Shown piece by piece: positions 866 to 27,209 of a DNA stretch of 64,000 nt. The DNA comes from an uncultured Gammaproteobacteria bacterium (lineage in GTDB: Bacteria; Pseudomonadota; Gammaproteobacteria; GCA-001735895). Location: assembly GCA_964196225.1 (NCBI GenBank), contig CAXMSP010000016.1:15036-79035 (forward strand), written 5' to 3'. The number at the start of each line of letters is the position of its first letter. Within the stretch, counting starts at the first letter, position 1. The notes under the pieces were generated by a model, which saw only the letters and a list, made by a program, of their open reading frames with translations, had not been told where the DNA came from and ran no database searches. Made by a program: the position numbers and the translations under genes.

Positions 866-867
866 TC

Positions 868-1410
868 ATGATGATTTCTAACAGACAAAAACAGCAAGGC
901 GTCGCACTGGTAGTCAGCTTGATCATACTGGTCAGTCTCACCATGCTCGGCCTGACTTCAATTCAGCGCACTACTACCGACCTGGCAATGGCCGGTAACC
1001 AGCGCGAAACCGGGCTGATGTTTCAGGCGGCCGAGGTTGGACTTTCGAGCGCCGAAACATTTATTGGCAATTCATCTACGAATTCGGATTTCAACAACGC
1101 TGGGCTCGGATTGATTACCGTTCCGGACAATAATCCGGCCTATAACGGCCCGAGTTATTTCAGACCCAACTGGGGCACTTCATCGCAACAGGCTTCAACT
1201 GCGCTAGATGCCTGGGAACAGCCGCGCTACATGATTGAATACCTGGGCGACCGCACACAGAACCCCCTGGCCGGAGTCAATATCGGCAGCTATGGCACGC
1301 AACAATCCGGTGACATCGTATCCATATATCGCTCTACCTCGCGTGGCGTAGGTCTGACCGTTAGTTCATTTAGATACGTTCAGTCGTATTTTGGCAAAGA
1401 CAAGCCATAA
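868..1410 (+). CDS. pilX: Type IV pilus minor pilin PilX
   Basis: The N-terminus QQGVALVVSLIILVSLTMLGLTS is a PilX_N-type hydrophobic helix. The gene sits between pilW and pilY1, with a 2-nt gap to pilW. Confidence 0.7.
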   Translation: MMISNRQKQQGVALVVSLIILVSLTMLGLTSIQRTTTDLAMAGNQRETGLMFQAAEVGLSSAETFIGNSSTNSDFNNAGLGLITVPDNNPAYNGPSYFRPNWGTSSQQASTALDAWEQPRYMIEYLGDRTQNPLAGVNIGSYGTQQSGDIVSIYRSTSRGVGLTVSSFRYVQSYFGKDKP

Positions 1411-1425
1411 CATTAATTTTTTAGG

Positions 1426-4400
1426 ATGAGAACTATGTTTACCAAAAAACTTTTAAAGGGACTTGCAACAATCGTGTCAACCACGATCTTCAGCATGTCA
1501 ACAATCCAGTCGGCCTATGCCGCACCCGGCAACCTGGCGACTGCACCCCTGTTCCTGTCCACCATCGTGGAACCCAACGTATTCTTAACCCTGGACGACT
1601 CGGGTAGCATGGACTGGGGCCCGATGGTCGCCGAAGGTACTGGCGACGATAGTGTTACCCTTACGGGCGGATTTACCACCTCGGGTGGCCTGCCCTGGGT
1701 CGGAGCCAGCGGGTGTACACCCGGATGCGATGAACGCCGCGGGCATTACACACCAGGCTTCGCCGGCACGCGCTCCGTGCTGCCACCGGCAGACGGAACC
1801 GATTCCGAGTGGGACAAAACCTGGATCGTGCGCAACAACATTGGTAACCGAAACTACTACAACCCCAGTATCAAATATGGCCCCTGGGTCGGAACCCAAT
1901 CGGATGGCGTCACACCGATGTATATCGACGCGGTTGAGACCGCGGCACTTAAAGATGCCGAAAACCCGGGCGGTCCCAGTGTCGACCTGACGGCCATGCA
2001 AACCTTCACTGATGACGGCCTAACGTCAACTACCATGTGGATTCCGACCTATTTCACCTGGACCGACGATGGGGATGGCGTGATCGAGCTAACCGATACC
2101 CATACCGAGGTGACCATTGCAGCCGGTAGCCCCGAAATGCAGAATTTCGCCAACTGGTTCCAGTACTACCGAAAGCGCATGGACGGTACCAAGCGAATAA
2201 TCGGTGGCGCGATCAATAACACCGACGCCTCGCGCATGGGTTTGCGATGGTTCAATGACGGTCATGCACTGGATGTTGAAACCATGAGTGACTCTACAAA
2301 AAAGCGTGACCTGCTGGAAAATCTTTATAAGCTTGATCCCGGTGGTGGTACCCCGGCGAGACGTGCGCTTAGAAATACCGGGTACTACTTCGACGATACT
2401 GGTGGCAGCGCGCCAATTTTATCGGCGTCCCTCGGCGGTGAATGTCAGCAGAATTTCAATATCCTGATGTCGGACGGTTTCTGGAACGGTAGTTCGCCCT
2501 CAGTAGGTAACCGCGACATCAATGGTGGTAACGGTAACACTATTTTTGACGGCAACGCGTCGCAATCGAACGATGGCGGTAACTACGCCGACGGTTTCAG
2601 CAGTACGCTCGCCGATGTCGCGATGAAAGACTACGAGCGCGACTTACGCACCGACCTGGCGAACAACGTGCCGACGCAAGCCGGCATCGACGAGGCCGAC
2701 CACCAGCACCTGGTAACTTATACGATTGCGTTTGGCCTCAGCGGAACACTTGATCCGCTCGTCGATGATCCGCTCGCGGTCGGCTTCGCCTGGCCTAAAC
2801 CGGTAGCAGACACGCCTACCACGATCGATGACATGTGGCATGCTGCCTATAATGCACGCGGCAAGTACCTGAGTGCCCAGGATCCTGGACAACTGCAGGC
2901 TTCGCTGAGTGCTGCACTTTCGAATATCGCCGAACGCACCGCAACTTCATCAGCGGTAGCATTCAGCTCGGCCAAGTTGACTACTGATACGACTGTTTAC
3001 CTGGCGGAGTTCAACACCAACCGCTGGCAGGGTGACTTGTTTGCCTTCAAAATCGACCCGGATACCGGTGATCTTGCCACAAGCGCGGAATGGTCCGCAG
3101 GTACTGAGCTTGTTACCCGTAACATTACCTCCAATCCCCGGGTAATCATGACTCATGATGGAACCACGGGTGTAGGGTTTCAATGGGCCAGCTTAAACAC
3201 TACACAAAAAGACGACCTCAAAACCAGCCCGACTGGGGTTATCGATCCCGATCCCCTTGAGGTGATTGGCAAGGCCCGCCTGGCATACCTGCGTGGCGAT
3301 CGTTCCGACGAAGGTAGCGGCAATTTTTTCCGTGAGCGCCTGTCGATACTTGGCGACCTGGTGAACTCGGGCCCGGTATACGTTGGCAAGCCCGCCCTGA
3401 ACTGGCCGGATACCCTGCCATTCCCGGACACCACCGGCCAGCTTTATTCGGAATTCAAGAATAATAGCTCGGCGGCCTCTCGTGACGGCATGGTCTATGC
3501 GGCGGCCAACGATGGCATGCTGCATGGTTTTGCCGAAGCCGACGGCGCTGAAACAATGGCCTATATCCCGAATATGATTTTCGCTACTGGACTTAGCCAG
3601 GGTATGCACTACCTCACCGATCAAGCCTACGGCCACAAGTACTATAACGATTTAACCCCGACCGTGTCGGACGTTTATGCAAACCTCGGGACTGGTACCA
3701 AATGGCAAACCATGCTGATAGGCGGTTTGCGCGGTGGTGGTCGCGGCATTTATGCACTTAATGTCACCGATCCGAATGCATTTTCTGAATCTAATGCCGC
3801 TGACCTCGTTCTGTGGGAATTCACGAGTAACGATGATGCCAATCTCGGCCATACTTATAGCCAACCACAAATCGCTATGGCGAACAATGGTCAATGGGTC
3901 GCAATATTTGGTAACGGTTACAACGATACCGGCGATGGTGAAGCCAAACTGTTCATCCTCGATATCGAAGCGGGTCTTGATGGTTGGGTTGCCGGTGATT
4001 ACAAGGTAATCACAACTAGTTCCGGCTCGGCGACCGATCGCAACGGCCTCGCCACTCCGCGGCTGGCTGATATCGATGGTAACGGCACCGTTGACCGTGT
4101 TTACGCCGGTGACCTGAAAGGCCAAATGTGGGCATTCGAAATGGACGATACCGACTCGACCTTTTGGGCCATCTCGGGATCAGCACCGCTGTTTAACACT
4201 GTAGGCGGTCTCCCCATCACTGCTAAACCCGTTCTTGCCAAGCATCCGACCGAACCGGATTCGGGCACCAATTATCCGAATATAATGGTGTTCTTCGGTT
4301 CAGGCCAATACCTGACTAATGCCGATAAATCCACCACGGATTTGAACTACTTCTATGGTGTGTGGGACCAGGGCAATAATAACCTTAACAATAGTGACCT

Positions 4401-4872
4401 GGTTCGTCAGAACTACGATAACACCTTTAATCCGTTTCGCGTATTGACTAATAACCCTGTCAATTACGCAGGTGGAGATGATGGTTGGTATTTTGATCTT
4501 CGCGATACCGGTGAACGCTCCGTGGTAGCACCAGCGGTTCGAGGTGCCCTGGTATTATTTAATACCTTCGTACCGGAATCTGATCCCTGCTCTAGCGGTG
4601 GATATGGATGGCGATTTGCGGTTGACCTGGCGACCGGCGGCTCTCCCCTGTCAGCGGCCAGCGACACCAACGGTGATGGCGTCATAGACTCAAATGATGC
4701 CGTCAATAATGGTACAGACGATGGCATCATCGCCGCGACAAGTGAACAGGGCTTTTTGTCCGAGGACGCATTTATCGGTAAATATGCATATGCATCGGAT
4801 AAGAAAAAGGACGTTCCACCATTTCCGGGAATCCCAACAGGCCGCTTCGGGTGGCAGGAGTTAATCCAATGA
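1426..4872 (+). CDS. pilY1: Type IV pilus tip adhesin/biogenesis factor PilY1 (vWA plus beta-propeller)
   Basis: 1148 aa with a signal peptide (..QSAYA/AP). It has an N-terminal MIDAS-like LTLDDSGSMDW motif. It also has the C-terminal PilY1 Ca-binding loop DIDGNGTVDRVYAGDLKGQMW and a second DTNGDGVIDSND loop. An alternative ATG at 1435 has better spacing to the AGGA. Confidence 0.85.
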   Translation: MRTMFTKKLLKGLATIVSTTIFSMSTIQSAYAAPGNLATAPLFLSTIVEPNVFLTLDDSGSMDWGPMVAEGTGDDSVTLTGGFTTSGGLPWVGASGCTPGCDERRGHYTPGFAGTRSVLPPADGTDSEWDKTWIVRNNIGNRNYYNPSIKYGPWVGTQSDGVTPMYIDAVETAALKDAENPGGPSVDLTAMQTFTDDGLTSTTMWIPTYFTWTDDGDGVIELTDTHTEVTIAAGSPEMQNFANWFQYYRKRMDGTKRIIGGAINNTDASRMGLRWFNDGHALDVETMSDSTKKRDLLENLYKLDPGGGTPARRALRNTGYYFDDTGGSAPILSASLGGECQQNFNILMSDGFWNGSSPSVGNRDINGGNGNTIFDGNASQSNDGGNYADGFSSTLADVAMKDYERDLRTDLANNVPTQAGIDEADHQHLVTYTIAFGLSGTLDPLVDDPLAVGFAWPKPVADTPTTIDDMWHAAYNARGKYLSAQDPGQLQASLSAALSNIAERTATSSAVAFSSAKLTTDTTVYLAEFNTNRWQGDLFAFKIDPDTGDLATSAEWSAGTELVTRNITSNPRVIMTHDGTTGVGFQWASLNTTQKDDLKTSPTGVIDPDPLEVIGKARLAYLRGDRSDEGSGNFFRERLSILGDLVNSGPVYVGKPALNWPDTLPFPDTTGQLYSEFKNNSSAASRDGMVYAAANDGMLHGFAEADGAETMAYIPNMIFATGLSQGMHYLTDQAYGHKYYNDLTPTVSDVYANLGTGTKWQTMLIGGLRGGGRGIYALNVTDPNAFSESNAADLVLWEFTSNDDANLGHTYSQPQIAMANNGQWVAIFGNGYNDTGDGEAKLFILDIEAGLDGWVAGDYKVITTSSGSATDRNGLATPRLADIDGNGTVDRVYAGDLKGQMWAFEMDDTDSTFWAISGSAPLFNTVGGLPITAKPVLAKHPTEPDSGTNYPNIMVFFGSGQYLTNADKSTTDLNYFYGVWDQGNNNLNNSDLVRQNYDNTFNPFRVLTNNPVNYAGGDDGWYFDLRDTGERSVVAPAVRGALVLFNTFVPESDPCSSGGYGWRFAVDLATGGSPLSAASDTNGDGVIDSNDAVNNGTDDGIIAATSEQGFLSEDAFIGKYAYASDKKKDVPPFPGIPTGRFGWQELIQ

Positions 4873-5177
4873 AACAGTTCAAATCTATTCTGACACAGTT
4901 GCTGCTAGTGACGACTCTGATGCTTCCGTGGGCAACCACGGAAGCCCTGGAAACCTTCAAAAAATCGGGGGTTATTTCCGAGCTGGGTTACGATGCGTTT
5001 ACCATATCCGGAAAGAAGTACCGCATCAGTTCCGATGCAAAACTGAAAAGCACCGACCTGTCACGTCAAAAGTTCGCGGATTTCAAAAAAGGCGATGAGA
5101 TTTTAGTTGGCGGGACAATATTGGACGGTGTTCATTACGTCGACATCATCGTTTACGTTTCTCCCGATCCATCTTAG
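4869..5177 (+). CDS. Small secreted protein at the PilY2 position (function unknown)
   Basis: MKQFKSILTQLLLVTTLMLPWATTEA looks like a signal peptide. The ATG overlaps the pilY1 stop (ATGA). It occupies the slot between pilY1 and pilE where pilY2 sits in Pseudomonas. I cannot verify any sequence similarity. Confidence 0.4.
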   Translation: MKQFKSILTQLLLVTTLMLPWATTEALETFKKSGVISELGYDAFTISGKKYRISSDAKLKSTDLSRQKFADFKKGDEILVGGTILDGVHYVDIIVYVSPDPS

Positions 5178-5193
5178 CTGGCGATATTTTACT

Positions 5194-5592
5194 ATGAATA
5201 AATCTAAAGGTTTCACCCTCATCGAGTTGATGATCGTCGTGGCGTTGGTTGGCATTCTCTCCGCCGTCGCCTTCAACATGTACGCTGACAACGTGATCGC
5301 ATCGAACCGCTCCGAGGGTCGTGCCGGGTTAACCGCAACCGCGGCCTCGCTGGAGAAATGCAAGAGTCTGTATGGAGTTTACGACAACCTCATCAATTGC
5401 CCCGTGCTCGCGACAATTGTAACCGAGTCGAACCTTTACTCGATAGACACGACGGGAAGAACGCCAACCACATTTACGCTGGTGGCAACCGCGCTTGGTT
5501 CCCAGCTGAGAGATGGCGACTGCACCACCTTGTCGCTAACCAATACCGGAATAAAAACCGCGACGGGCGTCGACCCCACTGTTTGCTGGTAA
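5194..5592 (+). CDS. pilE: Type IV minor pilin PilE
   Basis: MNKSKG/FTLIELMIVVALVGILSAVAF is a class III prepilin signal with Glu5. The protein is 132 aa with a C-terminal Cys pair (DGDCTT...PTVCW). I chose the ATG at 5194 rather than the ORF-track start at 5107. Confidence 0.85.
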   Translation: MNKSKGFTLIELMIVVALVGILSAVAFNMYADNVIASNRSEGRAGLTATAASLEKCKSLYGVYDNLINCPVLATIVTESNLYSIDTTGRTPTTFTLVATALGSQLRDGDCTTLSLTNTGIKTATGVDPTVCW

Positions 5593-5610
5593 GCACAAAG
5601 TAGTCTGATT

Positions 5611-5650
5611 AACCAACGGAGTCGACTTATCGACTCCGTTGGTTATTGTT
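5611..5650 (+). terminator. Rho-independent terminator after pilE
   Basis: Near-perfect hairpin AACCAACGGAGTCGA-CTTA-TCGACTCCGTTGGTT, followed by ATTGTT. Confidence 0.7.
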
Positions 5651-5682
5651 ATACTCCCCGTTTTAAAACCTGACCCAACCGC

Positions 5683-6726
5683 ATGACCAGAAAAGCAGTC
5701 GCGCTGATCTCTGGCGGCCTCGATTCATTGCTGGCCGCCAAATTGATTCAGCAACAGGGCATCGAGGTCGAAGGCATCAATTTCTTTACCGGCTTTTGCG
5801 TAGAAGGGCATACTCATGCCATCCGCAAACACGACCGCAACAAGGTTAAACGCAACAACGCGCTCTGGGTTGCAGAGCAACTCGGCATCAAGCTGCACAT
5901 TATCGATATTGTTGATGAGTACAAGGACGTCGTGATCAACCCAAAGCATGGCTATGGCGCTAATTTGAACCCCTGCCTCGATTGCAAGATATTCATGGTG
6001 CACAAGGCGCGGGAATGGATAAAGCAGCATGATTTCGATTTCATAATCACCGGTGAAGTGATCGGGCAACGCCCGAAATCACAGCGTAAAAAGTTAATGC
6101 CGGTAGTCGCCGAGGAATCGGGCGCCGATGACTTGCTACTGCGCCCGCTATGCGCCAGGAGCCTGCCGGCAACACGGCCCGAAACCGAGGGCTGGGTCGA
6201 TCGTGAACAACTGAAAGACTTCAGCGGACGTTCACGCAAACCGCAGATGGCACTCGCAGCAGAGTTTGGATTCGAAGATTATGCCCAGCCTGCCGGGGGT
6301 TGCTGCTTCCTGACGGACCAGAGTTACTCGGTCAAACTGCAGGATCTCTGGGACAACCGCGGCAGTCGGGATTACGAACTCGACGACATCATGCTGCTCA
6401 AGGTCGGGCGCCACATTCGTCCCAGCAAGGCGTTTAAACTGATTATCGGGCGTGAAGAAGGCGAGAATCAGTACCTGAGCGGTTATAAGCGACAATTTCA
6501 GACAATCAGTACCGTGAGCCATGCGGGTCCGCTGGCACTGATTGAAGGCGAACCACTCGACTCGCAGCAGCTCGAACTCGCCTGCGCGATCACCGCGCGC
6601 TACAGCAAGGGGCGCGATGCCGACTCGGTCGAGTTGCGCTTCAGTGACCGCGAACAGGGGTCGCGCAGTATTCATGTCAAACCACTGCCCGCGGCACAGA
6701 TCAACCCGGACTGGGTCATTGTATGA
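5683..6726 (+). CDS. PP-loop ATP pyrophosphatase, ThiI/MnmA-like (putative thiolation enzyme lacking a THUMP domain)
   Basis: It has the SGGLDS PP-loop at residues 10-15. NPCLDCKIFM...ITGEVIGQRPKSQ resembles the ThiI catalytic core. Its stop overlaps the start of a TusA-like gene. Confidence 0.6.
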   Translation: MTRKAVALISGGLDSLLAAKLIQQQGIEVEGINFFTGFCVEGHTHAIRKHDRNKVKRNNALWVAEQLGIKLHIIDIVDEYKDVVINPKHGYGANLNPCLDCKIFMVHKAREWIKQHDFDFIITGEVIGQRPKSQRKKLMPVVAEESGADDLLLRPLCARSLPATRPETEGWVDREQLKDFSGRSRKPQMALAAEFGFEDYAQPAGGCCFLTDQSYSVKLQDLWDNRGSRDYELDDIMLLKVGRHIRPSKAFKLIIGREEGENQYLSGYKRQFQTISTVSHAGPLALIEGEPLDSQQLELACAITARYSKGRDADSVELRFSDREQGSRSIHVKPLPAAQINPDWVIV

Positions 6727-6962: not shown

Positions 6963-8085
6963 ACAGCGCCACAAGATCACGCAGCGGGTAACACTGACCG
7001 GGGCCGCGGTTAACTGTGCCCTCGCTTCGTTGCAGATTTTTTTCGGCGTGTTTGGTAAGTCGCAGGCGTTGCTGGCCGACGGTTTCCATACCCTTTCAGA
7101 CCTCAGCACCGACTTTATCGTTCTATACGCATCCAGACGCGCCGCCAAGGCAGCGGACGAGGATCATCCCTATGGACATGGTCGGATCGAAACCCTGGCA
7201 TCGATGCTGCTGGGAGGCATCCTGATCACGGTCGGGGTCGGCATCGGCCTGCGCGGTGTCGACAGTATTCTTAATCCGCTGCGGATCAATCCCGATGCGA
7301 TAACCATTGTTTTCGCCCTGCTTGCCGTCGCCGCGAAAGAGAGCCTCTACCATTACACCCTGCGCGCGGCGCGCAAAACGCATTCGAGCCTGCTAGAGTC
7401 CAACGCCTGGCATCACCGCTCGGATGCGCTTTCCTCGATTGTCGTGGTGATTGGTATATCAGCACAGTTGCTGGGAGTTCCATACATGGATGCGCTGGCC
7501 TCGATCGTGGTCGCCGTGATGATATCGCTGATGGGATTCCGCCTCGGTCAAAAAGCGCTGTATGAACTGATCGATACCGGGCTCGACATCGACCTGGTTC
7601 GAGATGTACGCCAGGCGATGCTGGGCAACGCGAGCGTTGTCGGTATCCATAACCTGCGCACCCGGTCGATGGGTGGCCTGGGCTACATTGACGCCCATAT
7701 CGAGGTCGATCCCGACCTGACTGTTTCCGAGGCGCACTTTATCGCACATAACATAGAACACCTGGTGAAAAAGCAATTTCCGAAGATAATCGACGTGCAA
7801 ATTCACATCGACCCCCTCGATGATGCGGTCAAGGAGTCGGTACTGGCGAAGCTACCCGAACGAGAGGTGATCGAGCAGGATCTGCAACAGGCATGGAACG
7901 GCCTGTCTGGAAGCACGCAAATCATCCAGACCAAGCTGCATTACCTGGATCGACTGATTGAAGTCGACCTGGTGCTACCCGCATCGATGTGTACGCCGGA
8001 GCACGCAGATGGGATCGGCAGGCTGCAGGATGCGGCAAATAACCTCGACTATATTGGGAAAGTTAATATCTACTACGTCGCCTAG
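6952..8085 (+). CDS. Cation diffusion facilitator (CDF) family metal efflux transporter
   Basis: It carries SQALLADGFHTLSDL, DEDHPYGHGRIE and HHRSDALSS, the TM2/TM5 metal-site motifs of FieF-like CDFs. I chose the ATG at 6952 (MEIEQRH..), which overlaps the tusA-like gene by 11 nt. There is an extra C-terminal region of about 80 aa. Confidence 0.8.
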   Translation: MEIEQRHKITQRVTLTGAAVNCALASLQIFFGVFGKSQALLADGFHTLSDLSTDFIVLYASRRAAKAADEDHPYGHGRIETLASMLLGGILITVGVGIGLRGVDSILNPLRINPDAITIVFALLAVAAKESLYHYTLRAARKTHSSLLESNAWHHRSDALSSIVVVIGISAQLLGVPYMDALASIVVAVMISLMGFRLGQKALYELIDTGLDIDLVRDVRQAMLGNASVVGIHNLRTRSMGGLGYIDAHIEVDPDLTVSEAHFIAHNIEHLVKKQFPKIIDVQIHIDPLDDAVKESVLAKLPEREVIEQDLQQAWNGLSGSTQIIQTKLHYLDRLIEVDLVLPASMCTPEHADGIGRLQDAANNLDYIGKVNIYYVA

Positions 8086-8087
8086 TT

Positions 8088-8155
8088 TGCACTAATTTGG
8101 TGCAGTTTCTTTGAAATCCCCATATAATCCGCCAATTTTGCACGATAAATTGGCA
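8088..8155 (+). promoter_or_regulatory. glnA control region with two NtrC-type dyads flanking a TATAAT
   Basis: TGCACTAATTTGGTGCA (8088-8104) matches the TGCACC-N5-GGTGCA NtrC dyad. A second, imperfect copy, TGCACGATAAATTGGCA, lies at 8139-8155. TATAAT lies at 8123-8128. Confidence 0.45.
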
Positions 8156-8216
8156 TCGGGATATTAATCGGTACAATCCCACCTGTTTTTGACCCCCGAT
8201 TTTGGAGATTTAAGTC

Positions 8217-9626
8217 ATGTCTGCGTCTGATGTGTTGAACAAGATTAACGAGTACGGCGTGAAATTCGTCGATTTCCGCTTTACCGATACCAAGGGCAAG
8301 GAGCAGCATGTCTCGTTCCCGGCCAGTACCCTCAAAGAAGATACCTTTACCGAGGGTAAAATGTTTGACGGCTCCTCAGTCGCCGGCTGGAAAGGCATTA
8401 ACGAATCGGACATGATCCTGATGCCCGACCCAGCCACCGCGGTGCTCGATCCATTCACCGACGAACCCACGATTAACATCACCTGTAACGTGGTCGAACC
8501 GACCACCGGTGAAGGCTATGAGCGTGATCCGCGTTCCATCGCCGAGCGCGCCGAGGCTTACCTGAAGGCATCCGGAATCGCCGATACCGCGTATTTCGGT
8601 CCGGAAAACGAATTTTTCGTTTTTGACGACGTCAAGTGGTCGACCGAAATGGGGCATTGCTCCTACCAGATCGAGTCCGAAGAAGCGGCCTGGAGTTCGA
8701 TCAAAATGTACGAAGACGGCAACATCGGTCACCGACCCGGCGTTAAGGGTGGGTATTTCCCGGTCCCTCCGGTTGATTCTTTGCATGACATCCGCTCTGC
8801 GATGTGCCTGGCGATGGAAGAAATGAACCTCAAGGTCGAAGTCCACCACCACGAGGTGGCAACCGCGGGACAGTGTGAAATCGGGGTTGAATTCAATACC
8901 CTGGTGCGCAAGGCCGACGAGGTCCAGGTCTTGAAGTACTGCGTTCATAACGTTGCGCACAGCTATGGCAAAACCGCAACCTTCATGCCGAAGCCACTGG
9001 TGGGTGACAACGGTAACGGCATGCACGTGCACATGTCCCTCTTCAAAGACGGGGTCAACCTGTTTTCCGGCGAAGGCTACGGTGGCCTGTCGGACACCGC
9101 GCTGTTCTATATCGGCGGGGTGATCAAGCACGCGCGTGCCATCAATGCCTTTGCAAACGGCGCTACCAATAGCTACAAACGCCTGGTGCCAGGTTTCGAA
9201 GCCCCCGTCATGCTCGCCTACTCGGCGCGCAACCGTTCCGCTTCGATTCGTATCCCTTACGTCAGTAACCCGAAAGGTCGCCGCATCGAAGTGCGCTTTC
9301 CGGATTCGACCGCCAATCCTTATCTCGCGTTTGCCGCGCTGATGATGGCCGGCCTCGATGGCATCAACAACCAAATTCACCCTGGCGAAGCAATGGACAA
9401 GGATCTCTACGATTTACCGCCTGAAGAAGAGGCCGAAATACCGCAGGTTGCGTTTTCTCTCGACCAGGCTCTCGAAGCGCTCGACCAGGATCGTGAATTT
9501 TTGAAAGCTGGTGGCGTGTTCACCGATGATGTTATCGACGGTTATATCGATCTCAAAAACGAGGAAGTTGACCGCCTGCGCCTGGCGACCAACCCGGTCG
9601 AGTTCGACCTTTACTACAGCTGCTAG
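8217..9626 (+). CDS. glnA: Glutamine synthetase type I
   Basis: 469 aa, recognisable as GSI over its full length ([40 protein letters not shown], the adenylylation-loop region, and the ending VEFDLYYSC). Confidence 0.97.
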
Positions 9627-9647
9627 GCAATCGCTTGCACGATCGAC

Positions 9648-9674
9648 AAAAGGCCCCTCACGGGGCCTTTTTTG
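9648..9674 (+). terminator. Rho-independent terminator after glnA
   Basis: AAAAGGCCCC-TCAC-GGGGCCTTTTTTG. Confidence 0.8.
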
Positions 9675-9715
9675 TCTGCAACAGCGCAACCATGACTCGA
9701 ACCAACATAGTTTAA

Positions 9716-10795
9716 ATGTCGCAGCCAAACCTAAAACTGGCCCCGCCCACCGACACCGGTTTTCGTATCCTGGATACGCTTAATTCGTCGATACTGTGCC
9801 TCGATAGCGAACGCTGCATCACCTACGTCAACTCGGGCGGCGAGGCACTGTTCGAAAGCAGCGCGTCGAACCTGGTCGGACGCCAATTCGACAGCCTGCT
9901 GAGCCAGGTGGAACCTTCCAGCATACTCTCGAAACTGACCCTCGATTCGATAACATTCACCGAACACGAAGCGGTCATTACGCTTGCCGATGGCAGGGCA
10001 ATTATTGCCAATTACAGCATTTACCCGCTCGACGGGCAGACAGCAGATGATGAGATCGTGCTGGAGATTCGTCAGTCTGAACACCAGGCACAGTTTGCGC
10101 AAGATGAACTCAATCAACTGCAACAGCAGGCCACCCAGCAGCTCGCGCGTGGGCTCGCGCATGAAATCAATAATCCGTTAGGCGGTATTCGAGGCGCAGC
10201 GCAGTTGCTACAACGAGCGCTCGACCGTCCCGAGTGGACCGAGTATACCGAGGTAATCATCAGCGAAGTTGACCGCCTGCAATCCCTGACCAGCAAGATG
10301 CTCGTGCCCGGAAGCAGAATGCAGCGCGCGGAAGTCAACATACTCGAGGTGCTGGAACATATCCGCAAGATCATTCTGGCGGCCGAGCCTGATCGCATAA
10401 TAATAAGACGTGACTATGACCCCAGTATTCCGGAAATCATGGCAGATCGCGACATGCTGATCCAGGCTTTCCTGAATATCGCTCGAAACGCGGTACAGGC
10501 GATCGAGGGAAGCGGTGAAATCACCTTCAAGACTCGCGTGGGTCGACAGTTCACCATCGGTCAGATCACCCATCCGCTGGTAGTACAGGTCGACATTACC
10601 GACAGCGGCCGGGGTATTCCACATGATTTGGGCGAGACTATTTTTCTGCCAATGATTACTGACAAGCCCGAAGGCAGTGGCCTCGGCCTGCCGATTGCGC
10701 AGGAAATAATCTCCCGGCACGGGGGCACCATTCACCTGCACAGTTCTGACCGCGGAACCACCTTTAGCACCATTCTGCCCCTGGAAAAGACATGA
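9716..10795 (+). CDS. glnL: Nitrogen regulation sensor histidine kinase NtrB
   Basis: It has a PAS-like N-terminus, the H-box LARGLAHEINNPLGGIRGAAQLL and a HATPase domain (NIARNAVQA, DSGRGIP, GSGLGLP). It sits immediately downstream of glnA. Confidence 0.9.
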   Translation: MSQPNLKLAPPTDTGFRILDTLNSSILCLDSERCITYVNSGGEALFESSASNLVGRQFDSLLSQVEPSSILSKLTLDSITFTEHEAVITLADGRAIIANYSIYPLDGQTADDEIVLEIRQSEHQAQFAQDELNQLQQQATQQLARGLAHEINNPLGGIRGAAQLLQRALDRPEWTEYTEVIISEVDRLQSLTSKMLVPGSRMQRAEVNILEVLEHIRKIILAAEPDRIIIRRDYDPSIPEIMADRDMLIQAFLNIARNAVQAIEGSGEITFKTRVGRQFTIGQITHPLVVQVDITDSGRGIPHDLGETIFLPMITDKPEGSGLGLPIAQEIISRHGGTIHLHSSDRGTTFSTILPLEKT

Positions 10796-11436
10796 ATCTA
10801 GCGACTAGCATTGCACCCCTTAAAATCTGGATCATCGATGATGATCAATCAATGCGCTGGGTACTGGAAAAGACCCTGTCCAATAATGGCTACCAGGTAT
10901 CCGCCTTCGAATCCGGCTCGGTTGCACTGGCTACATTCAAGCGTACCGAGTCCGAGGCACGCCCGCGCCTGATCATCACCGATGTGCGCATGCCCGGGAT
11001 TAACGGTTTCGAGCTGCTTAAGCAAATCAAGAATATATCACCACAAACGCCGATCATCGTGATGACGGCGTACACCGACCTCGATACCACTGTGCAGGCG
11101 TTCCAGGAGGGCGCTTTTGAATACCTGCCCAAACCTTTCGATATCGACGACGCGCTCGAACTGGTTGCGCGTGCCTGTGAACCCGTGGTTGAAACCGGTG
11201 CCAATCTGCCGCGATTTCCAGACGAAATTGGTGACTGGCAGGCGCAACTACGCCTGTGGGCTAAGCAGCAACTGTCACAGGGAGAAACCGACATTCTTAA
11301 GAACGCTGCCAGGACCTTTGAGAAAACCCTGCTGGATTGTGCGCTCGAAGCCACGCGCGGACGCAAACAGGATGCGGCCCGGCTGCTTGGCTGGGGCAGG
11401 AATACCCTGACCCGAAAACTAAAGGAGTTAAGTTAA
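10792..11436 (+). CDS. NtrC-like response regulator lacking the sigma54 AAA+ domain (REC plus Fis-type HTH only)
   Basis: 214 aa. The REC domain is intact (IIDDD, ITDVRMPG, MTAY, YLPKP). The C-terminus QDAARLLGWGRNTLTRKLKELS is the NtrC HTH. No Walker A or GAFTGA segment lies between them. The start overlaps the ntrB stop. Confidence 0.85.
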   Translation: MNLATSIAPLKIWIIDDDQSMRWVLEKTLSNNGYQVSAFESGSVALATFKRTESEARPRLIITDVRMPGINGFELLKQIKNISPQTPIIVMTAYTDLDTTVQAFQEGAFEYLPKPFDIDDALELVARACEPVVETGANLPRFPDEIGDWQAQLRLWAKQQLSQGETDILKNAARTFEKTLLDCALEATRGRKQDAARLLGWGRNTLTRKLKELS

Positions 11437-11439
11437 TTC

Positions 11440-11580
11440 CGTCATTCCGGCCTTCGAGCCGGAATCGATTCGCGCCACGCCCCCATTACCAGAACAAGGA
11501 TAGTCAGCGTGGACATTCGGGATGATTTTAATAAAGTCATCCACGCGCAATAACGTCATCCCCGCGAAAGCGGGGATCTC
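11440..11580. repeat. Cluster of short GTCATYCC-hairpin-GGRATC palindromic repeats (REP-like)
   Basis: CGTCATTCCGGCCTTCGAGCCGGAATC lies at 11440-11466 and CGTCATCCCCGCGAAAGCGGGGATCTC at 11554-11580. Degenerate or inverted copies lie between them (GGACATTCGGGATGA, AGTCATCCACGCG). The same family recurs at 61541-61700. Confidence 0.55.
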
Positions 11581-11653
11581 GCAACTATGACATTGTCGTA
11601 AGATTCTCGTTGCGCGGATATGACCCGGCTTAGGAGATATGCCGACTACGATC

Positions 11654-12388
11654 CTATTCAGAAATGCACTTCATGTAGGCCTGTTCCAGCGTTTCGGCCT
11701 GGTAGCGCTGCATGCAGTCTTCAGGAGTTCCCTGGTACTTCATTTCACCGTCATGCAGAATGCCGAACTGGTCGCAAAGATCCTCGGCATCGGCAAGCAG
11801 ATGCGTGCTGTATAGTACAGTACGTCCGGCAACTTTTTCTTCCTTCATCAACTCCTTGAAATGGTAACGCGCGCGCGGGTCGAGTCCGCTTAATGGCTCA
11901 TCAAGAATCAGCAGTTGCCGCTCGAGTATGAAGCAGCTCACCAGCCCCAGTTTCTGCACCATTCCCTTGGAATAACCACCCACCCTGGAGTCAAGCCGGT
12001 CGGGTGGGAAATCGAGTCTCTCTGAGAGTTCGGTAATTTTCTGTTTCCCGGGATTCTGATGATAAACCGCTGCGATAAAATCGAGATACTGCTGCCCCGT
12101 GATATTTTTTTTCACATCAAACTTTTCCGGCAGATAAGCAAGTTGGTCGCGACAGCTCGGGTCTCGATTATTGGTGCCGAATATTTTGATTTCCCCGCCT
12201 GGTAACGGTCGAATCAAATCAAGAATTAATTTTATTAGCGTCGACTTGCCGGCACCGTTGATCCCTGCGATCGCGAAATAACTATGCGTCGGGATTTCAA
12301 TCGCCAACGCTTTCAGGATATCAAGGCCAGAAACAGAATAAGAAAGGTTGGTCAGTGAAACTGCGTTATTCATCGCGACTGGGGTCAA
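11654..12388 (-). CDS. ABC transporter ATP-binding protein (ABC-2/CcmA-like)
   Basis: It has Walker A GINGAGKST, signature YSKGMVQKL, Walker B LLILDEPLSGLD and an H-loop STH. Confidence 0.85.
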   Translation of the reverse strand: MTPVAMNNAVSLTNLSYSVSGLDILKALAIEIPTHSYFAIAGINGAGKSTLIKLILDLIRPLPGGEIKIFGTNNRDPSCRDQLAYLPEKFDVKKNITGQQYLDFIAAVYHQNPGKQKITELSERLDFPPDRLDSRVGGYSKGMVQKLGLVSCFILERQLLILDEPLSGLDPRARYHFKELMKEEKVAGRTVLYSTHLLADAEDLCDQFGILHDGEMKYQGTPEDCMQRYQAETLEQAYMKCISE

Positions 12389-12663: not shown

Positions 12664-13287
12664 TTAGAAGCGGAACACGATAGTGTACAGGGTTGTATCC
12701 ACATACGGCGGTGTTGCTGTGACACCGGGAGGAAGAACTTCACCTAGAGCAGCCGGAATATACCCGCGGACGCGTCCGGTAGTAGTAACACCATCGTCCA
12801 GCCTGGATTCGAGTACTTTAACAACCTGACCTTCCAATCCGCCAAACGCGGTGACATGGCCTTGTATTCCCAGCCCGTTGTAGTTAATGCCAACCTTGCC
12901 ACCATAAGCATTTTGCTGTGGGTCGATATCGGCCGCAGCACCATTCACCAGTCCAGATGATCGCAGGTGCGTCCAAAAAAAGCCTGTTTCATCGGCGACG
13001 GCAGGTGCCTGCCAGTTTCCTGCAATCGTTCCATCCCCATTTCCGCTGGTAGGGCCAGAATCGAAACGACCATTAGCGGCGTCATCATCCCCGGGTAACT
13101 GCAGGTAACGATCCTGATAAGAGAATATCGCCGCCTGTATGCCCGCGTTGTCGCTTTCAATGCGCTTGATTTTTGCATTGGTAATCATTTCCTGGCCTTT
13201 CAGTACGCCGCCGATCAGCAGCCCCACGATGACCAGTACGATCGCGATTTCAACCAGGGTGAAACCTCTTTGTTTTGATAATTGCAT
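12664..13287 (-). CDS. Prepilin-type (class III signal) pilin/pseudopilin, orphan, probable filament subunit
   Basis: MQLSKQRG/FTLVEIAIVLVIVGLLIGGVLKGQEMI is a class III signal with Glu5. The protein is 207 aa and has no cysteines. GGAG lies 6 nt upstream of the ATG at 13287. The ORF-track start at 13332 is rejected. Confidence 0.8.
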   Translation of the reverse strand: MQLSKQRGFTLVEIAIVLVIVGLLIGGVLKGQEMITNAKIKRIESDNAGIQAAIFSYQDRYLQLPGDDDAANGRFDSGPTSGNGDGTIAGNWQAPAVADETGFFWTHLRSSGLVNGAAADIDPQQNAYGGKVGINYNGLGIQGHVTAFGGLEGQVVKVLESRLDDGVTTTGRVRGYIPAALGEVLPPGVTATPPYVDTTLYTIVFRF

Positions 13288-13327: not shown

Positions 13328-13344
13328 TGCATTTAATATGCCAG
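13328..13344 (-). promoter_or_regulatory. Sigma54 (-24/-12) promoter of the orphan pilin
   Basis: The minus strand reads CTGGCAT-ATTAA-ATGCA. GG and GC are separated by exactly 10 nt, and the element lies about 40 nt upstream of the ATG at 13287. Confidence 0.6.
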
Positions 13345-16719: not shown

Positions 16720-17586
16720 CTAAGGTAATTGCCCGGCATCGATCATTTTGGAAAAGAGTAAATTCGGTGACCCCCACTTGACGACATCGTCAAAATCATC
16801 GGCAAACCCGGTAGTTCTGCGCACAAAAGTGGTTTCTCCCCCCGCTACATCTTTAAGCAAGTATTGGTTAAGACTTGGCCCAAGACCCATGGCCAGGGTT
16901 GCATCATTCGTCAGATTAGCACCAATATTTTCAAGCTCGTCCCCGGCCGCTGCGCCGTCGTTCCAGTTCTTGCCCTGGGATAGCAGCACAAAAGGCGCGC
17001 CTCCATAAACCACGGGTGGACCAACATTATAGGTACCAAAGACCTCTACCGCACCCGTGCACTGGTTATTCGTGGAGGTCCCATTGTCGTCGCAGATCAA
17101 GTAAATCCCATCGAGGTCGGTATAACCATCCGTATTCGAATCTACCAGGCCAACGGCGCGCATTTCTCCGTTATTGACGAAGTCTGATCCGCCAGCGCCA
17201 TTAAAGTCATTATCGGTAACATAGTACCGGTAAGGATTACCCCAGGGGTCCAGCATTAGCGAATCAGCATTGAGTCGGCCGGTCAGGCCGAGTGTATTCG
17301 CCGGCACGAAGCCACCGAAATTGTTGCAATCAGCCCCGCCACCACCATCTTCAGCCCCGGCTGTATTGGGGATTGCAGGACAGGGCAGGCGACCGTTTAC
17401 CTGTGCAAACCCAACAATGGCCCCTATTATCTGGTCCATCTCCTGTTCGACCGCACGATATTTTTTCAGCTCCTGTTGTTTCGGGAACAACGCCACGGTA
17501 TACCCCAGTAAAACAGAAACTATCAGCAGTGCAATTGCGATTTCAACGAGGGTAAAGCCTGATTCGGATGGTGTCATTGTGCGCAT
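16720..17586 (-). CDS. GspG-family pseudopilin with enlarged globular domain
   Basis: MRTMTPSESG/FTLVEIAIALLIVSVLLG is a class III signal. LDPWGNPYRYYV matches the GspG DPWGNPY motif. It also has FVLLSQGKNWNDG and a Ca-loop-like DSNTDGYTDLDG. At 288 aa it is about twice the normal GspG length. Confidence 0.7.
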   Translation of the reverse strand: MRTMTPSESGFTLVEIAIALLIVSVLLGYTVALFPKQQELKKYRAVEQEMDQIIGAIVGFAQVNGRLPCPAIPNTAGAEDGGGGADCNNFGGFVPANTLGLTGRLNADSLMLDPWGNPYRYYVTDNDFNGAGGSDFVNNGEMRAVGLVDSNTDGYTDLDGIYLICDDNGTSTNNQCTGAVEVFGTYNVGPPVVYGGAPFVLLSQGKNWNDGAAAGDELENIGANLTNDATLAMGLGPSLNQYLLKDVAGGETTFVRRTTGFADDFDDVVKWGSPNLLFSKMIDAGQLP

Positions 17587-17593
17587 GTTATTG

Positions 17594-19522
17594 TTACCTG
17601 ATTACCAAAACCTTGTCGTTATTAGTCAGAGCCCAGGCATTGAAAATATCGTCAGCATTTGCATTTTCCGGATCAAATATATCCGGTAGATCATCGAGGA
17701 ATCCATCGAAAGCTTCGTCAATAAAGGTATGCTCGGAAGCAAGCGTCAACACGGCAATTTTATCATTGGCAATACCACCGGCATTATTGACCGTCAGGCA
17801 ATTCGGGGGTACGCAGGCCGCGGCAACACCGGGTTGAAAACTGGCGGCATAGGCCATTTGAACCGAGTCGTGCCAGTTATTGCCACTCAAACTAATGGGA
17901 GTCAGCGCCGGGTCCAGGGCCCATACCGGTAGTTCCGGATAATAGCGGACACCGAGTAAGTAATTGACATCGCCATCAGGAAGAGGGAGCGGATCCAGAC
18001 TGTTGAGGAAATGAGTATCGTGGCGGTAGATCACATCGATCGAATCGGCTAGCACTTCAGCGTATTCAAAGAAAATGTAGGCATGATCACCCACGGTTGG
18101 GGCCTGATAGGTCGGAACCACCCCAGCATTATCCGTATAGGGCCTGGTAAAGGGCACACCTGCCGCCAGGATGTTGGTATAGGTGACTCGCACCACCTGT
18201 GTTGCACATTGATTGGCAACGAGGGTACCGTCAGGGATACCGGAACAGAGGCCGCCGCCGAGATCGACCTGGTGACAGTCCTTCTCGTCGAAAGTGACCA
18301 GGGGCAGGCACTCCTGCCAGCCATCCGGAGCAAATTCCTCATCCCAATAATATCGCACAGGCGATACACCGGGCACGGCCGGGGTAATCGTCAGATCGCC
18401 ATTGTTTTCCAATGGGTGGTTGAAAACTATCGACGCACCGGCGCTAATCACATCTGGCAACAGGCCTGGCACCGCGAAACCGTTTACCGACAGGTTGATT
18501 AACAGCTTCAAATCCGACAGGATCGGCTGACTGGGTTGGCCCGATGGATCATTGTCGAAGTAGTTTGCAAAAATCGACGGCACGCGGCCGAGGCGGATTC
18601 CCACATCGGCATCAAAGACTTGCGGGGGGATGGGGAGCGTCGCATAGTCGTCCAACCAGGGGTACACATCTGTTCCGATATTAACCATATTAACATTATA
18701 GTCATTGACTGCCGTTTGGTAGGCTTGCAAGGCTGCCTGTTCGGCCACTGCAATCACTTCTTCGGTAGTCACCAGGATCACTTGGTCATTGACAATGATC
18801 GTGCCAGTCGCCAAATTATCGACCGGACCAAGTACGAATCCATCTACCGCATTCAAATTAGTGAAATCAGAATTATCCAACGCCCCGAACAAATCAAGAT
18901 AATTGGCGGGATTAAGTTGTTGTGGCCCAGTCAGGCGCAACTGCGCGACTCCGCCTCTGTCGATAGGCGGGCCAGGCGCAATAATAACCGCGGCCACGCC
19001 CGCAACCGAACCGTCGTATATTACCGATCCCGTCTGGTCATAAATCGTAATCGTACCGGGAGTGTCGGAATTGATTTCCTCCAGATCGGGATTGGCGAAA
19101 TTTTGCGAGACCGCGTACCAGAGCCGCTCATTGCTGGCATCTCTGACATCATAAAATTGCATGCCATTAGCGTTCCACGGGAAACGCCCGACAACAGCAT
19201 TGCCGGCAGCAATACAGTTAGCAATGGGATTGGGAGTACCCGCGCCTCCCGGGGCATCTCTATCGGGGCAGGGTAACCTGCCTGGTCCCCGAATCGTGCT
19301 GTTAAATGCCAATGCGGTTTCGGGATAGCGGTAGGCGTACATCAACAGCGCCTGCTTGGCTTCTTTTAAAACTTGCTGGTTATGTAAAAAACGCTCATGG
19401 TCCGCTGCTTTTTTGACACCCTGGGTGAAACCTGCAGTAACCGCACCGCCGATGCCCATCGCCAACAACACAAACATTATCAGCATATAGCCGGACTGAC
19501 TCTTGCAGAGACTTCGATTCAT
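17594..19522 (-). CDS. Large GspK/PilX-like filament-associated protein (non-canonical prepilin-like N-terminus)
   Basis: 642 aa. The N-terminus KSQSG/YMLIMFVLLAMGIGGAV is pilin-like but lacks Glu5, as in GspK and PilX. It shares a GRLPCP...C loop motif with the adjacent pseudopilin. Confidence 0.55.
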   Translation of the reverse strand: MNRSLCKSQSGYMLIMFVLLAMGIGGAVTAGFTQGVKKAADHERFLHNQQVLKEAKQALLMYAYRYPETALAFNSTIRGPGRLPCPDRDAPGGAGTPNPIANCIAAGNAVVGRFPWNANGMQFYDVRDASNERLWYAVSQNFANPDLEEINSDTPGTITIYDQTGSVIYDGSVAGVAAVIIAPGPPIDRGGVAQLRLTGPQQLNPANYLDLFGALDNSDFTNLNAVDGFVLGPVDNLATGTIIVNDQVILVTTEEVIAVAEQAALQAYQTAVNDYNVNMVNIGTDVYPWLDDYATLPIPPQVFDADVGIRLGRVPSIFANYFDNDPSGQPSQPILSDLKLLINLSVNGFAVPGLLPDVISAGASIVFNHPLENNGDLTITPAVPGVSPVRYYWDEEFAPDGWQECLPLVTFDEKDCHQVDLGGGLCSGIPDGTLVANQCATQVVRVTYTNILAAGVPFTRPYTDNAGVVPTYQAPTVGDHAYIFFEYAEVLADSIDVIYRHDTHFLNSLDPLPLPDGDVNYLLGVRYYPELPVWALDPALTPISLSGNNWHDSVQMAYAASFQPGVAAACVPPNCLTVNNAGGIANDKIAVLTLASEHTFIDEAFDGFLDDLPDIFDPENANADDIFNAWALTNNDKVLVIR

Positions 19523-19524
19523 GC

Positions 19525-19995
19525 CTAATTTTGAACGGGCGCCATGTAAGTGACTTCTAGCATATCCCCGCTGGTCGCGTAGTATTGCTTGCCGTCTGGA
19601 GCGGTAATCCTGACTTTTATTTCATCGCCAACCATCACCTTGATTTTGCTGTTGTCCTCGAGTTGCTCCCCGTCTTCATAGGCCAGGGTATTTATCCAGA
19701 CGGTGTGCGGGCCATCTTTCGAAATCGTTATTCCGGAAATCCGGTATTGCTGGGTCACTTCCTCTTGAGCCTGCAGCGGTGTCGGTTGCGTCCCTTCATC
19801 GACTTGCGTCGGCCTCGTCTGCGTGCTTTCTTCAGACTTGTAACGATTCGAATTGATAATCTGACGTTCCTGGGGCGTGGTGAACAGCGTCGCAAATTCC
19901 GCCGGCTGCACCGGTTGGAATGAAACCGCTGCGCAGACTGTTATTGTTCCCCAGATAAACCGGGCTTTCAGTTTTTTCGGTTTACTTTGCATCAA
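19525..19995 (-). CDS. Small secreted protein, PilP/GspC/MshK-like position
   Basis: 156 aa with a signal sequence or N-terminal anchor, a low-complexity linker, and a beta-rich C-terminal domain of about 70 aa. The start overlaps the upstream gene. Confidence 0.45.
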   Translation of the reverse strand: MMQSKPKKLKARFIWGTITVCAAVSFQPVQPAEFATLFTTPQERQIINSNRYKSEESTQTRPTQVDEGTQPTPLQAQEEVTQQYRISGITISKDGPHTVWINTLAYEDGEQLEDNSKIKVMVGDEIKVRITAPDGKQYYATSGDMLEVTYMAPVQN

Positions 19996-22173: not shown

Positions 22174-22183
22174 AACCTATACA

Positions 22184-23389: not shown

Positions 23390-23391
23390 GC

Positions 23392-27200: not shown

Positions 27201-27209
27201 CAGCTATCT

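Follow-up and report, generated by a model that had tools for sequence, protein, structure and literature searches.

What can an NtrC protein still do once the domain with which it activates sigma-54 promoters has gone? NtrC is the model for the mechanism of enhancer-binding proteins, and the signalling from its receiver to its AAA+ domain is the textbook case; the phosphorylated receiver normally docks on a neighbouring AAA+ domain. The question is raised by a 64-kb stretch of DNA from an uncultured Gammaproteobacteria bacterium (contig CAXMSP010000016.1; the whole stretch analysed here is called the window), in which the gene following glnA and ntrB encodes a protein of only 214 amino acids. 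Judged by its sequence, this protein is an NtrC (GlnG) ortholog stripped of the whole AAA+ sigma-54-activating domain and is thus a two-domain response regulator. On balance, it is probably a functional, phosphorylation-controlled regulator of glnA of the sigma-70 type, with activation as the likeliest mode of action and with the loss of the AAA+ domain as the last step of the change.

Architecture and identity of the short NtrC

The short ntrC (the glnG ortholog) occupies positions 10792 to 11436 of the forward strand, and its product of 214 amino acids (aa) comprises a receiver, a linker and a Fis-type DNA-binding domain, the AAA+ domain being absent. The receiver (REC) domain (10825-11178, forward strand, residues 12-129) was delimited by Pfam, by its match to the structure 1dc7 and by an AlphaFold2 (AF2) model with a pLDDT of about 90. 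It is followed by a variable linker (11179-11229, forward strand, residues 130-146), the junction at which the AAA+ domain is located in full-length NtrC, and by the NtrC C-terminal domain (11230-11433, forward strand, residues 147-214) with two dimerisation helices and a helix-turn-helix (HTH). The ATG of the gene overlaps the TGA of ntrB in an ATGA at 10792-10795, and the short ntrC is translationally coupled to ntrB. Neither a frameshift nor an internal stop was found in the open reading frame (ORF).

In the Pfam search of the 214-aa protein, Response_reg was matched at residues 12-124 (1.5e-29) and HTH_8 at residues 174-213 (6.4e-14), while the Sigma54_activat domain was absent; the AAA+ domain of Escherichia coli NtrC, used as a tblastn query, likewise found no match at this locus. 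In the multiple alignment, for which the E. coli NtrC sequence was taken from locus L081, the short protein corresponded to approximately residues 1-132 and 396-469 of E. coli NtrC, separated by a gap of about 260 columns in which Walker A, Walker B, GAFTGA and the R-finger region are all contained. The net loss amounts to 255 residues, or about 765 bp relative to enteric ntrC. A first-pass annotation of this DNA, made from the letters alone, had described the same reading frame (10792-11436, with a translation identical to the one it quoted) as an NtrC receiver, a short linker and an NtrC C-terminus, without frameshift or stop and with its start overlapping the ntrB stop, and had put the missing segment, with Walker A/B, GAFTGA and the R-finger, at about 250 residues; all of this agrees with the present results. 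Its further statement that such a protein could not remodel the sigma-54 holoenzyme is borne out by the complete absence of the AAA+ domain.

The top NCBIfam model for the short NtrC was ntrC TIGR01818, with 221 bits in two stretches, of which the listed receiver stretch covered model positions 1-116 of 463. The protein falls below the equivalog cutoffs of both NtrC models (221 bits versus 558.6 for TIGR01818 and 216 bits versus 620 for NF008176). The closest PDB entry was the NtrC receiver 1dc7 for the receiver half (E 1.4e-36) and the NtrC DNA-binding domain 1ntc for the C-terminal half, where residues 147-213 were aligned with 22-88 (E 1.4e-14). The recognition helix, ARLLGWGRNTLTRKLKEL, is identical in the short NtrC and in E. 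coli NtrC. In the receiver, the acidic pocket D16/D17/D18, the phospho-acceptor D64 (D54 of E. coli), T92, Y111 and K114 are all kept in invariant columns, the last three being the equivalents of T82, Y101 and K104 of NtrC. The AF2 model has a confident receiver (residues 11-129) and, as in NtrC, four helices at the C-terminus (149-162, 168-187, 192-199 and 203-213), with a disordered linker between the two domains (133-146, pLDDT <50); the pTM of 0.57 means that no fixed arrangement of the domains is predicted. A Foldseek search with this model returned generic receiver domains only and nothing beyond the sequence matches.

The identification as NtrC is therefore based on several observations taken together: both halves score best on NtrC, the recognition helix is the same, the gene fills the third position of the glnA-ntrB-ntrC order, and it groups, with a support of 66%, with the NtrCs of the same locus. 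In the databases, these proteins are labelled 'GlnG', 'NtrC family response regulator' or plainly 'response regulator'.

Distribution and selection of the short form

A search of 5.8 billion proteins yielded more than 120 protein clusters of 212-219 aa with 80-93% identity, all of them consisting of REC and HTH_8. In a one-genome-per-species scan, of which the best 80 hits were considered, the short gene was found in 12 further species-level metagenome-assembled genomes (MAGs; L001-L012) at 74-96% identity; the related loci were seen as stretches of at most about 21 kb (flanks of up to 20 kb), and the MAGs are incomplete. All 12 are labelled as uncultured Gammaproteobacteria, and most originated from sediments. 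Where the contigs allow, the same order of genes was present, i.e., a thiI-like gene, tusA, a CDF transporter gene, glnA, ntrB, the short ntrC and a convergent ABC ATPase gene. ORF extraction from the related MAGs gave a short ntrC of 214-219 aa every time, and the ATGA coupling between ntrB and ntrC was kept in the related short-form loci. Twelve other species-level assemblies with this architecture rule out that the gene is a chance ORF or the product of misassembly.

Among 11 short ntrC sequences, the ratio of nonsynonymous to synonymous substitution rates (dN/dS) was 0.07 in the receiver, 0.04 in the C-terminal domain, 0.54 in the 17-residue linker and 0.09 over the whole gene, at a median dS of about 1.3. 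The alpha4-beta5-alpha5 face of the receiver was near-invariant among the short forms. The short ntrC is intact, old and under strong purifying selection.

Three states of the AAA+ domain at one locus

The nearest long relatives were found by searching 1.84 billion cluster representatives. Three loci carry an intact NtrC of 483-487 aa with GAFTGA: L015 and L017, which have the full synteny of the window, and L014, which has its upstream part only because the contig ends there. Degenerate relatives are represented by P0122 (452 aa, L082) and P0124 (440 aa, L084-L086), whose contigs are syntenic with the window through the pilin gene and three more downstream genes. In both proteins a Walker A-like GEHGTGKT or GEYGTGKT is kept, the GAFTGA loop is deleted, KN or TD stands in place of the DE of Walker B, and the FREDLFHRLN segment (R-finger region) has lost its two arginines. 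Further short forms at the same locus were found in L083 (P0121, 217 aa) and L087 (P0357, 217 aa); the latter lies on a 2.57-Mb scaffold (ERZ21270619:scaffold_5644), and its protein has 60% identity to that of the window.

In a neighbor-joining (NJ) tree of 202 REC and C-terminal-domain columns, in which the other enhancer-binding protein of the window served as the sole outgroup and RegA/PrrA was left out, the short clade of the window was supported by 92% bootstrap and was joined with the full-length and degenerate NtrCs of the same locus at 66%, deeper nodes being unsupported. Other short forms were placed elsewhere in the tree, i.e., L013 with P0130 (64%), P0148, P0209, P0217 and P0159, with weak nodes. 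With P0130 as the query, more than 100 additional clusters of 192-223 aa with REC and HTH_8 were obtained.

The distribution of the short form points to a loss of the AAA+ domain that is old and lineage-wide, and not to a recent deletion in the genome of the window. The first-pass annotation had proposed a survey of orthologs on exactly this point; the short form was found in L001-L012, in L087 and in more than 100 metagenome clusters. The loss probably occurred more than once. It is quite possible, although a little short of probable, that the textbook sigma-54 activator NtrC was turned several times into a two-domain sigma-70-type regulator in environmental Gammaproteobacteria, with the stages (the glnA promoter switch, the death of the ATPase and GAFTGA, and the clean excision of the AAA+ domain) visible at one locus.

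NtrC-like proteins with a degenerate or absent AAA+ domain were also observed in other lineages (P0140, P0130, P0148, P0159, P0209, P0217 and L013). In P0140 (480 aa), GAFTGA is replaced by GDVSGS and the D of Walker B by N. In L013, a MAG of Acidiferrobacteraceae, glnA and ntrB are followed at 9926-10567 by a short gene with an ORF of 213 aa, about 185 aa of which align to the query.

The upstream region of glnA

A distal NtrC-type dyad, TGCACTAATTTGGTGCA, is located at 8088-8104 (no strand assigned). It is the sole perfect TGCAC-N7-GTGCA in the window, where 0.06 would be expected by chance, and it is also the one match to the enteric NtrC consensus when up to one mismatch is allowed. In the related loci, the sole dyad with at most one mismatch likewise lies 5' of glnA, the only exception being one extra match in L001. 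The predicted sigma-70 promoter of glnA, TTGGCA-N16-TACAAT, follows at 8150-8177 on the forward strand; it agrees with the consensus at 10 of 12 positions and is the best sigma-70-like match in the region 7900-11900, and its spacer is 16 bp in every species. The distance between the dyad centre and the first base of the -35 element is 54 bp in all ten species compared, without a single indel in the interval. Among the other loci, those with a degenerate form have 54 or 55 bp here (L082, L084), those with an intact form 39-41 bp, and L087 has 43 bp, i.e., one helical turn less.

The mean pairwise identity among the ten species was 90% in the dyad arms, 50% in the dyad spacer and 44% in the intervening 30 bp, and it was 87% in the promoter-proximal box TTTTGCACGATWAA, 100% in the -35 hexamer and 97% in the -10 hexamer. 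This box (TTTTGCACGATAAA in the window, 8136-8149, no strand assigned) contains the NtrC half-site TGCAC and abuts the -35 element; positions 8139-8155 fit the dyad pattern with two mismatches. A weak second site for NtrC (8139-8155) is one possibility for the box, an UP-like element another.

In a scan with the sigma-54 consensus, no -24/-12 element was found 5' of glnA in the window. When a promoter was scored as GG and GC in register with at most two mismatches (chance expectation 0.017 per region), a sigma-54 promoter was present 5' of glnA in 26 of 38 other loci with full-length NtrC versus none of the 16 loci of the synteny clade (Fisher p = 1.7e-6). The relatives in the synteny clade with an intact AAA+ domain were also without it, which implies that the promoter switch at glnA preceded the decay and loss of the domain.

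Between the dyad and the main promoter, a -10-like element (TATAAT/TAAAAT) with partial conservation, in 8 of 10 species, was observed at 8123-8128. The right arm of the dyad covers the position of the corresponding -35 element, a layout that recalls the NtrC-repressed glnAp1 of E. coli. Separately, the possibility that the dyad is a mere terminator of the upstream CDF gene was considered and rejected as the main interpretation, because the arms hold the NtrC consensus without co-varying, the same consensus occurs 5' of glnA in distant taxa, and the spacing to the promoter is fixed.

Sigma-54 elsewhere in the window

Over the whole window, the sigma-54 consensus scan gave 33 matches versus 34.6 expected, i.e., the chance level; such a scan is informative only when it is limited to upstream regions and compared across species. 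One predicted sigma-54-type -24/-12 promoter, TGGCATATTAAATGCA, is located on the reverse strand at 13328-13343, 5' of a pilin gene. It is kept at the same position as TGGCAY-N5-WATGCW in L001, L003, L004, L006, L007, L008, L010 and L012, and variants with the GG-N10-GC spacing occur in L009, L015, L017, L082, L084 and L087, which makes at least 14 related loci with GG and GC in register. In addition, a complete enhancer-binding protein with REC, Sigma54_activat (E 3.2e-63) and HTH_8 was located by tblastn at 30646-32040 on the reverse strand, and it has the motifs GESGSGKE, KGAFTGA and LLLDEV. The organism thus very probably still uses sigma-54 for other genes, rpoN itself lying outside the window. 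A GAFTGA activator together with a conserved pilin promoter argues that the loss of the AAA+ domain was specific to NtrC and was not part of a genome-wide loss of sigma-54.

The pilin gene (12664-13287, reverse strand) is two genes downstream of ntrC, and the promoter is about 40 nt 5' of its likely start (MQLSKQRGFTLVE...). The start listed for the pilin ORF, 13332, falls within the promoter and is unlikely to be right; the true start is probably 13287. The gene for the enhancer-binding protein heads a large MSHA/T2SS-like pilus operon (16720-32040, reverse strand) that contains genes for an AAA_22 protein, a secretin, a TPR protein, a T2SSE ATPase with an MshEN domain, T2SSF and N_methyl pilins.

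Proposed regulation of glnA by the short NtrC

The following mechanism is proposed. Under nitrogen limitation, NtrB would phosphorylate D64, and a dimer of the short NtrC would bind the glnA dyad at 8088-8104 and possibly the weaker half-site at 8139-8155. The bound protein would modulate the sigma-70 promoter at 8150-8177 without ATP hydrolysis or sigma-54. The likeliest mode would be a helix-face-dependent activation by recruitment, as in Fis, RegA/PrrA or a class I activator that touches RNA polymerase, and the alpha4-beta5-alpha5 face of the phosphorylated receiver could supply the dimer-dimer or polymerase contacts. A concurrent repression of the weak -10-like element at 8123-8128 under the dyad would also be possible (cf. 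E. coli glnAp1). As to the order of events, glnA would have passed to a sigma-70 promoter, after which the AAA+ domain would have decayed and finally been excised. The first-pass annotation had expected that nitrogen control in this organism must work by repression or by sigma-70-type activation; this fits at glnA, where a conserved dyad and a predicted sigma-70 promoter were found and no -24/-12 element.

Activation is favoured for three reasons: phosphorylated NtrC is the signal of nitrogen limitation, when glnA is needed; the phasing of the dyad is kept where the proximal box is absent (L087, L082, L084); and Fis-type domains and regulators of the RegA/PrrA type are established activators of sigma-70 promoters. 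The choice between activation and repression is nevertheless not settled, and several points weigh against the proposed mechanism. Where transcription starts, whether the protein binds the dyad and in which direction it regulates glnA were all inferred from the DNA sequence. The promoter, with 10 of 12 consensus positions, may be strong without an activator, which would favour repression, and because the relatives with an intact AAA+ domain share the sigma-54-less glnA promoter, the type of promoter alone says nothing about how the short protein acts. The proximal box is near-invariant in the closest clade only and is not conserved in L082, L084, L087, L014, L015 and L017. The dyad directly follows the stop codon of the CDF gene and was also scored as a weak terminator-like hairpin, and only one strong dyad is present at glnA in the window versus paired enhancer sites in most full-length loci. 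Moreover, amtB, glnK, nas and ure do not occur in the window, so that the regulon is seen at glnA only, and another ntrC of full length may exist outside the part of the genome seen here.

Alternative explanations

The most serious alternative, although an unlikely one, is that the short NtrC is a repressor only, which would shut down an otherwise constitutive glnA-ntrBC promoter in negative autoregulation by binding cooperatively to the distal dyad and the -35-proximal half-site, while glutamine synthetase would be tuned mainly after translation. A near-consensus promoter may indeed need no activator, the invariant TGCAC half-site abuts the -35 element, and a distance of 51 bp, or about five helical turns, between the centres of the two sites fits cooperative or looping repression; it is also established that NtrC dimers repress sigma-70 promoters in enterics, e.g., glnAp1 and glnLp of E. 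coli. However, a shut-off of glnA by the phosphorylated, nitrogen-starvation form would be physiologically backwards, and a near-invariant phospho-switch and alpha4-beta5-alpha5 face would be needless in a constitutive dimeric repressor. The dyad phasing, moreover, is kept without the proximal box in L087, L082 and L084 (43, 54 and 55 bp), which points to phasing with RNA polymerase and not with a second operator. It is still less probable, indeed improbable, that the protein is an accessory factor or competitor, i.e., a phosphate sink, a dominant-negative competitor for sites or the DNA-targeting partner of a separate AAA+ protein, with the real activator encoded elsewhere, as a further NtrC of full length or as another enhancer-binding protein. 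The organism does keep at least one enhancer-binding protein and sigma-54 promoters, and such a gene might escape a view of incomplete MAGs that covers 64 kb here and at most about 21 kb per related locus. Yet the canonical target glnA is without a -24/-12 promoter in 16 of 16 loci, the short gene fills the orthologous slot in the operon and is coupled to ntrB, and the 13 MAGs with a short ntrC gave no second NtrC-like locus among the best 80 genome hits, although the same scan did recover NtrCs of full length, at 38-60% identity, from many other taxa.

The two remaining alternatives concern the nature of the gene itself. That the protein belongs to a different REC-HTH_8 family, as a redox regulator of the RegA/PrrA/ActR type that merely resembles NtrC, is very improbable. 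The two-domain architecture is the same and there is a weak ActR_PrrA match to the receiver, but this match (NF033791) reached 66 bits versus a cutoff of 250, with its best stretch at residues 12-129, compared with 221 bits in two stretches for the ntrC model. The operon is that of glnA, the adjoining kinase is an NR(II) equivalog, the recognition helix is that of NtrC, and the protein groups (66%) with the NtrCs of the same locus. The probability of an artefact or a decaying remnant, i.e., a misassembly or a pseudogene from a recent deletion, is close to nil: nothing more than the bare absence of the segment of about 765 bp relative to enteric ntrC would suggest it, whereas 12 species-level MAGs from separate studies and over 100 protein clusters share the length and the junction, both domains have a dN/dS of 0.04-0.07 at a saturating dS, and the ATGA coupling is conserved. 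Misassembly and membership in an unrelated REC-HTH family had also been named in the first-pass annotation as grounds on which its reading could fail. Neither overturned it, given 13 independent MAG assemblies (L001-L012 and L087) with the same neighbours and with purifying selection, and given that both ends of the protein score best on NtrC models with an identical ARLLGWGRNTLTRKLKEL. The preferred reading continues to be a sigma-70-type regulator derived from NtrC.

Operon and wider neighbourhood

The gene for a type I glutamine synthetase, glnA, is located at 8217-9626 on the forward strand and was assigned by Pfam domains and by the GlnA equivalog NF007006 (862 bits versus a cutoff of 845). 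It is followed by ntrB (glnL; 9716-10795, forward strand), which encodes the NR(II) histidine kinase (NF008293, 291 bits versus a cutoff of 240; PAS, HisKA and HATPase_c). The kinase adjoining the short ntrC is accordingly a soluble PAS-HisKA-HATPase NR(II) equivalog and not a membrane redox kinase of the RegB/PrrB/ActS type. The order of the locus is thiI-tusA-CDF-glnA-ntrB-ntrC-ABC-pilin, with the ABC ATPase gene convergent to the short ntrC, and this order is shared by L015, L017, L082 and L084, relatives with a full-length NtrC.

Immediately 3' of ntrC (11437-11625), repeated units consisting of GTCAT and a hairpin were observed, with perfect 8-bp stems at 11444-11465 and 11558-11577 and near-tandem 19-nt repeats at 11530-11567. 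These units look like elements of the repetitive extragenic palindromic (REP) or miniature inverted-repeat transposable element (MITE) type, and the first of them may be the operon terminator, though it has no T-run. An Rfam scan of the window gave no matches. Directly 5' of thiI-tusA, a cluster of type IV pilus minor-pilin genes (PilW, PilX, PilY1 and a ComP/PilE-like pilin) extends over 32-5592 on the forward strand; its order is repeated on the 2.57-Mb scaffold of L087, so that synteny in the group extends over an entire block of about 17 kb.

In the degenerate-AAA+ lineages, ntrC and the convergent ABC ATPase gene are separated by an inserted sulfatase gene (L082, 7449-8795; L084, 5758-7173; L086, 1987-3315), which is absent from the window and the other short-form loci. 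In L007, glnA (7429-8833) aligned as two overlapping pieces, an apparent frameshift, and in L083 the homolog of orf535 (4838-6444) was found in three pieces on a long-read contig of 3x coverage; both apparent frameshifts are probably sequencing errors.

Evolutionary and functional implications

These results suggest that a nitrogen two-component circuit can be rewired to sigma-70 while NtrB, the receiver switch and the DNA specificity stay in place, in an organism that very probably still uses sigma-54. With its AAA+ domain intact, degenerate or deleted at one and the same syntenic locus, NtrC would represent an ordered evolutionary path, by which REC-Fis regulators may plausibly have originated. 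If the repeated conversion is true, it would show in living organisms how enhancer-binding proteins give rise to REC-Fis regulators of the RegA/PrrA kind, and perhaps to Fis. It would also imply a new output mechanism, in which the receiver, at an upstream site in helical phase, drives contacts between dimers or with RNA polymerase. There is also a practical consequence: since these proteins are automatically annotated as 'GlnG' or 'response regulator', predictions of a sigma-54-based Ntr regulon would be wrong in the case of these sediment Gammaproteobacteria, an abundant group.

Comparison with known systems

The short NtrC resembles enteric NtrC/GlnG (NR-I) in its position after glnA and ntrB, its receiver, its DNA-binding domain and the consensus dyad 5' of glnA. 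It differs in that the AAA+ domain is absent, a sigma-70-type promoter stands in place of glnAp2 at glnA, and one strong dyad is present. Without an AAA+ domain, the protein can neither form an oligomeric ATPase ring nor make the GAFTGA contact or remodel the open complex.

No description of an AAA+-less NtrC ortholog was found in the searchable literature, in which papers on the GAFTGA-less NtrCs of Rhodobacter and Caulobacter were found. It was reported that the NtrCs of Rhodobacter capsulatus and Caulobacter crescentus are without GAFTGA, act at sigma-70 promoters and regulate nitrogen genes, including glnA/glnBA, in a phosphorylation-dependent manner (10.1101/2023.06.06.543975). The R. capsulatus protein keeps its AAA+ domain and needs ATP binding, and a Caulobacter ntrC allele without the AAA domain did not support growth in defined medium (10.1101/2023.06.06.543975). 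Like these proteins, the short NtrC has apparently abandoned sigma-54, and P0122 and P0124 resemble their GAFTGA-less state. However, the AAA+ domain is kept and required in those alphaproteobacterial systems, while it is gone in the gammaproteobacterial one described here. The short NtrC fits the pattern of a sigma-70-dependent NtrC, in view of the conserved promoter and dyad and of the missing -24/-12 element.

The best functional analogy for the short NtrC is the family of RegA/PrrA/ActR/RoxR, which likewise combines REC with a Fis-type HTH and has no AAA+ domain. Regulators of the RegA/PrrA family are controlled by phosphorylation and act at sigma-70 promoters by direct DNA binding. The two groups are nevertheless separate by profile score, and the protein described here has NtrB as its partner, lies in the glnA operon and has an NtrC origin that can be traced via intermediates.

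The fold of Fis is that of the C-terminal domain of NtrC, and it was reportedly proposed by Morett and Bork in 1998 that Fis derives from that domain. Fis activates sigma-70 promoters, e.g., rrnB P1, from helically phased upstream sites via the C-terminal domain of the alpha subunit. Unlike the short NtrC, Fis has no receiver and no phosphorylation control, and it is a nucleoid-associated protein with a degenerate sequence specificity. Natural domain-loss variants of the NtrC family are also represented by FlgR of Helicobacter and CtcC of Chlamydia, but these show the converse loss: they are enhancer-binding proteins that have dropped the DNA-binding HTH domain and have kept the AAA+ domain and the dependence on sigma-54.

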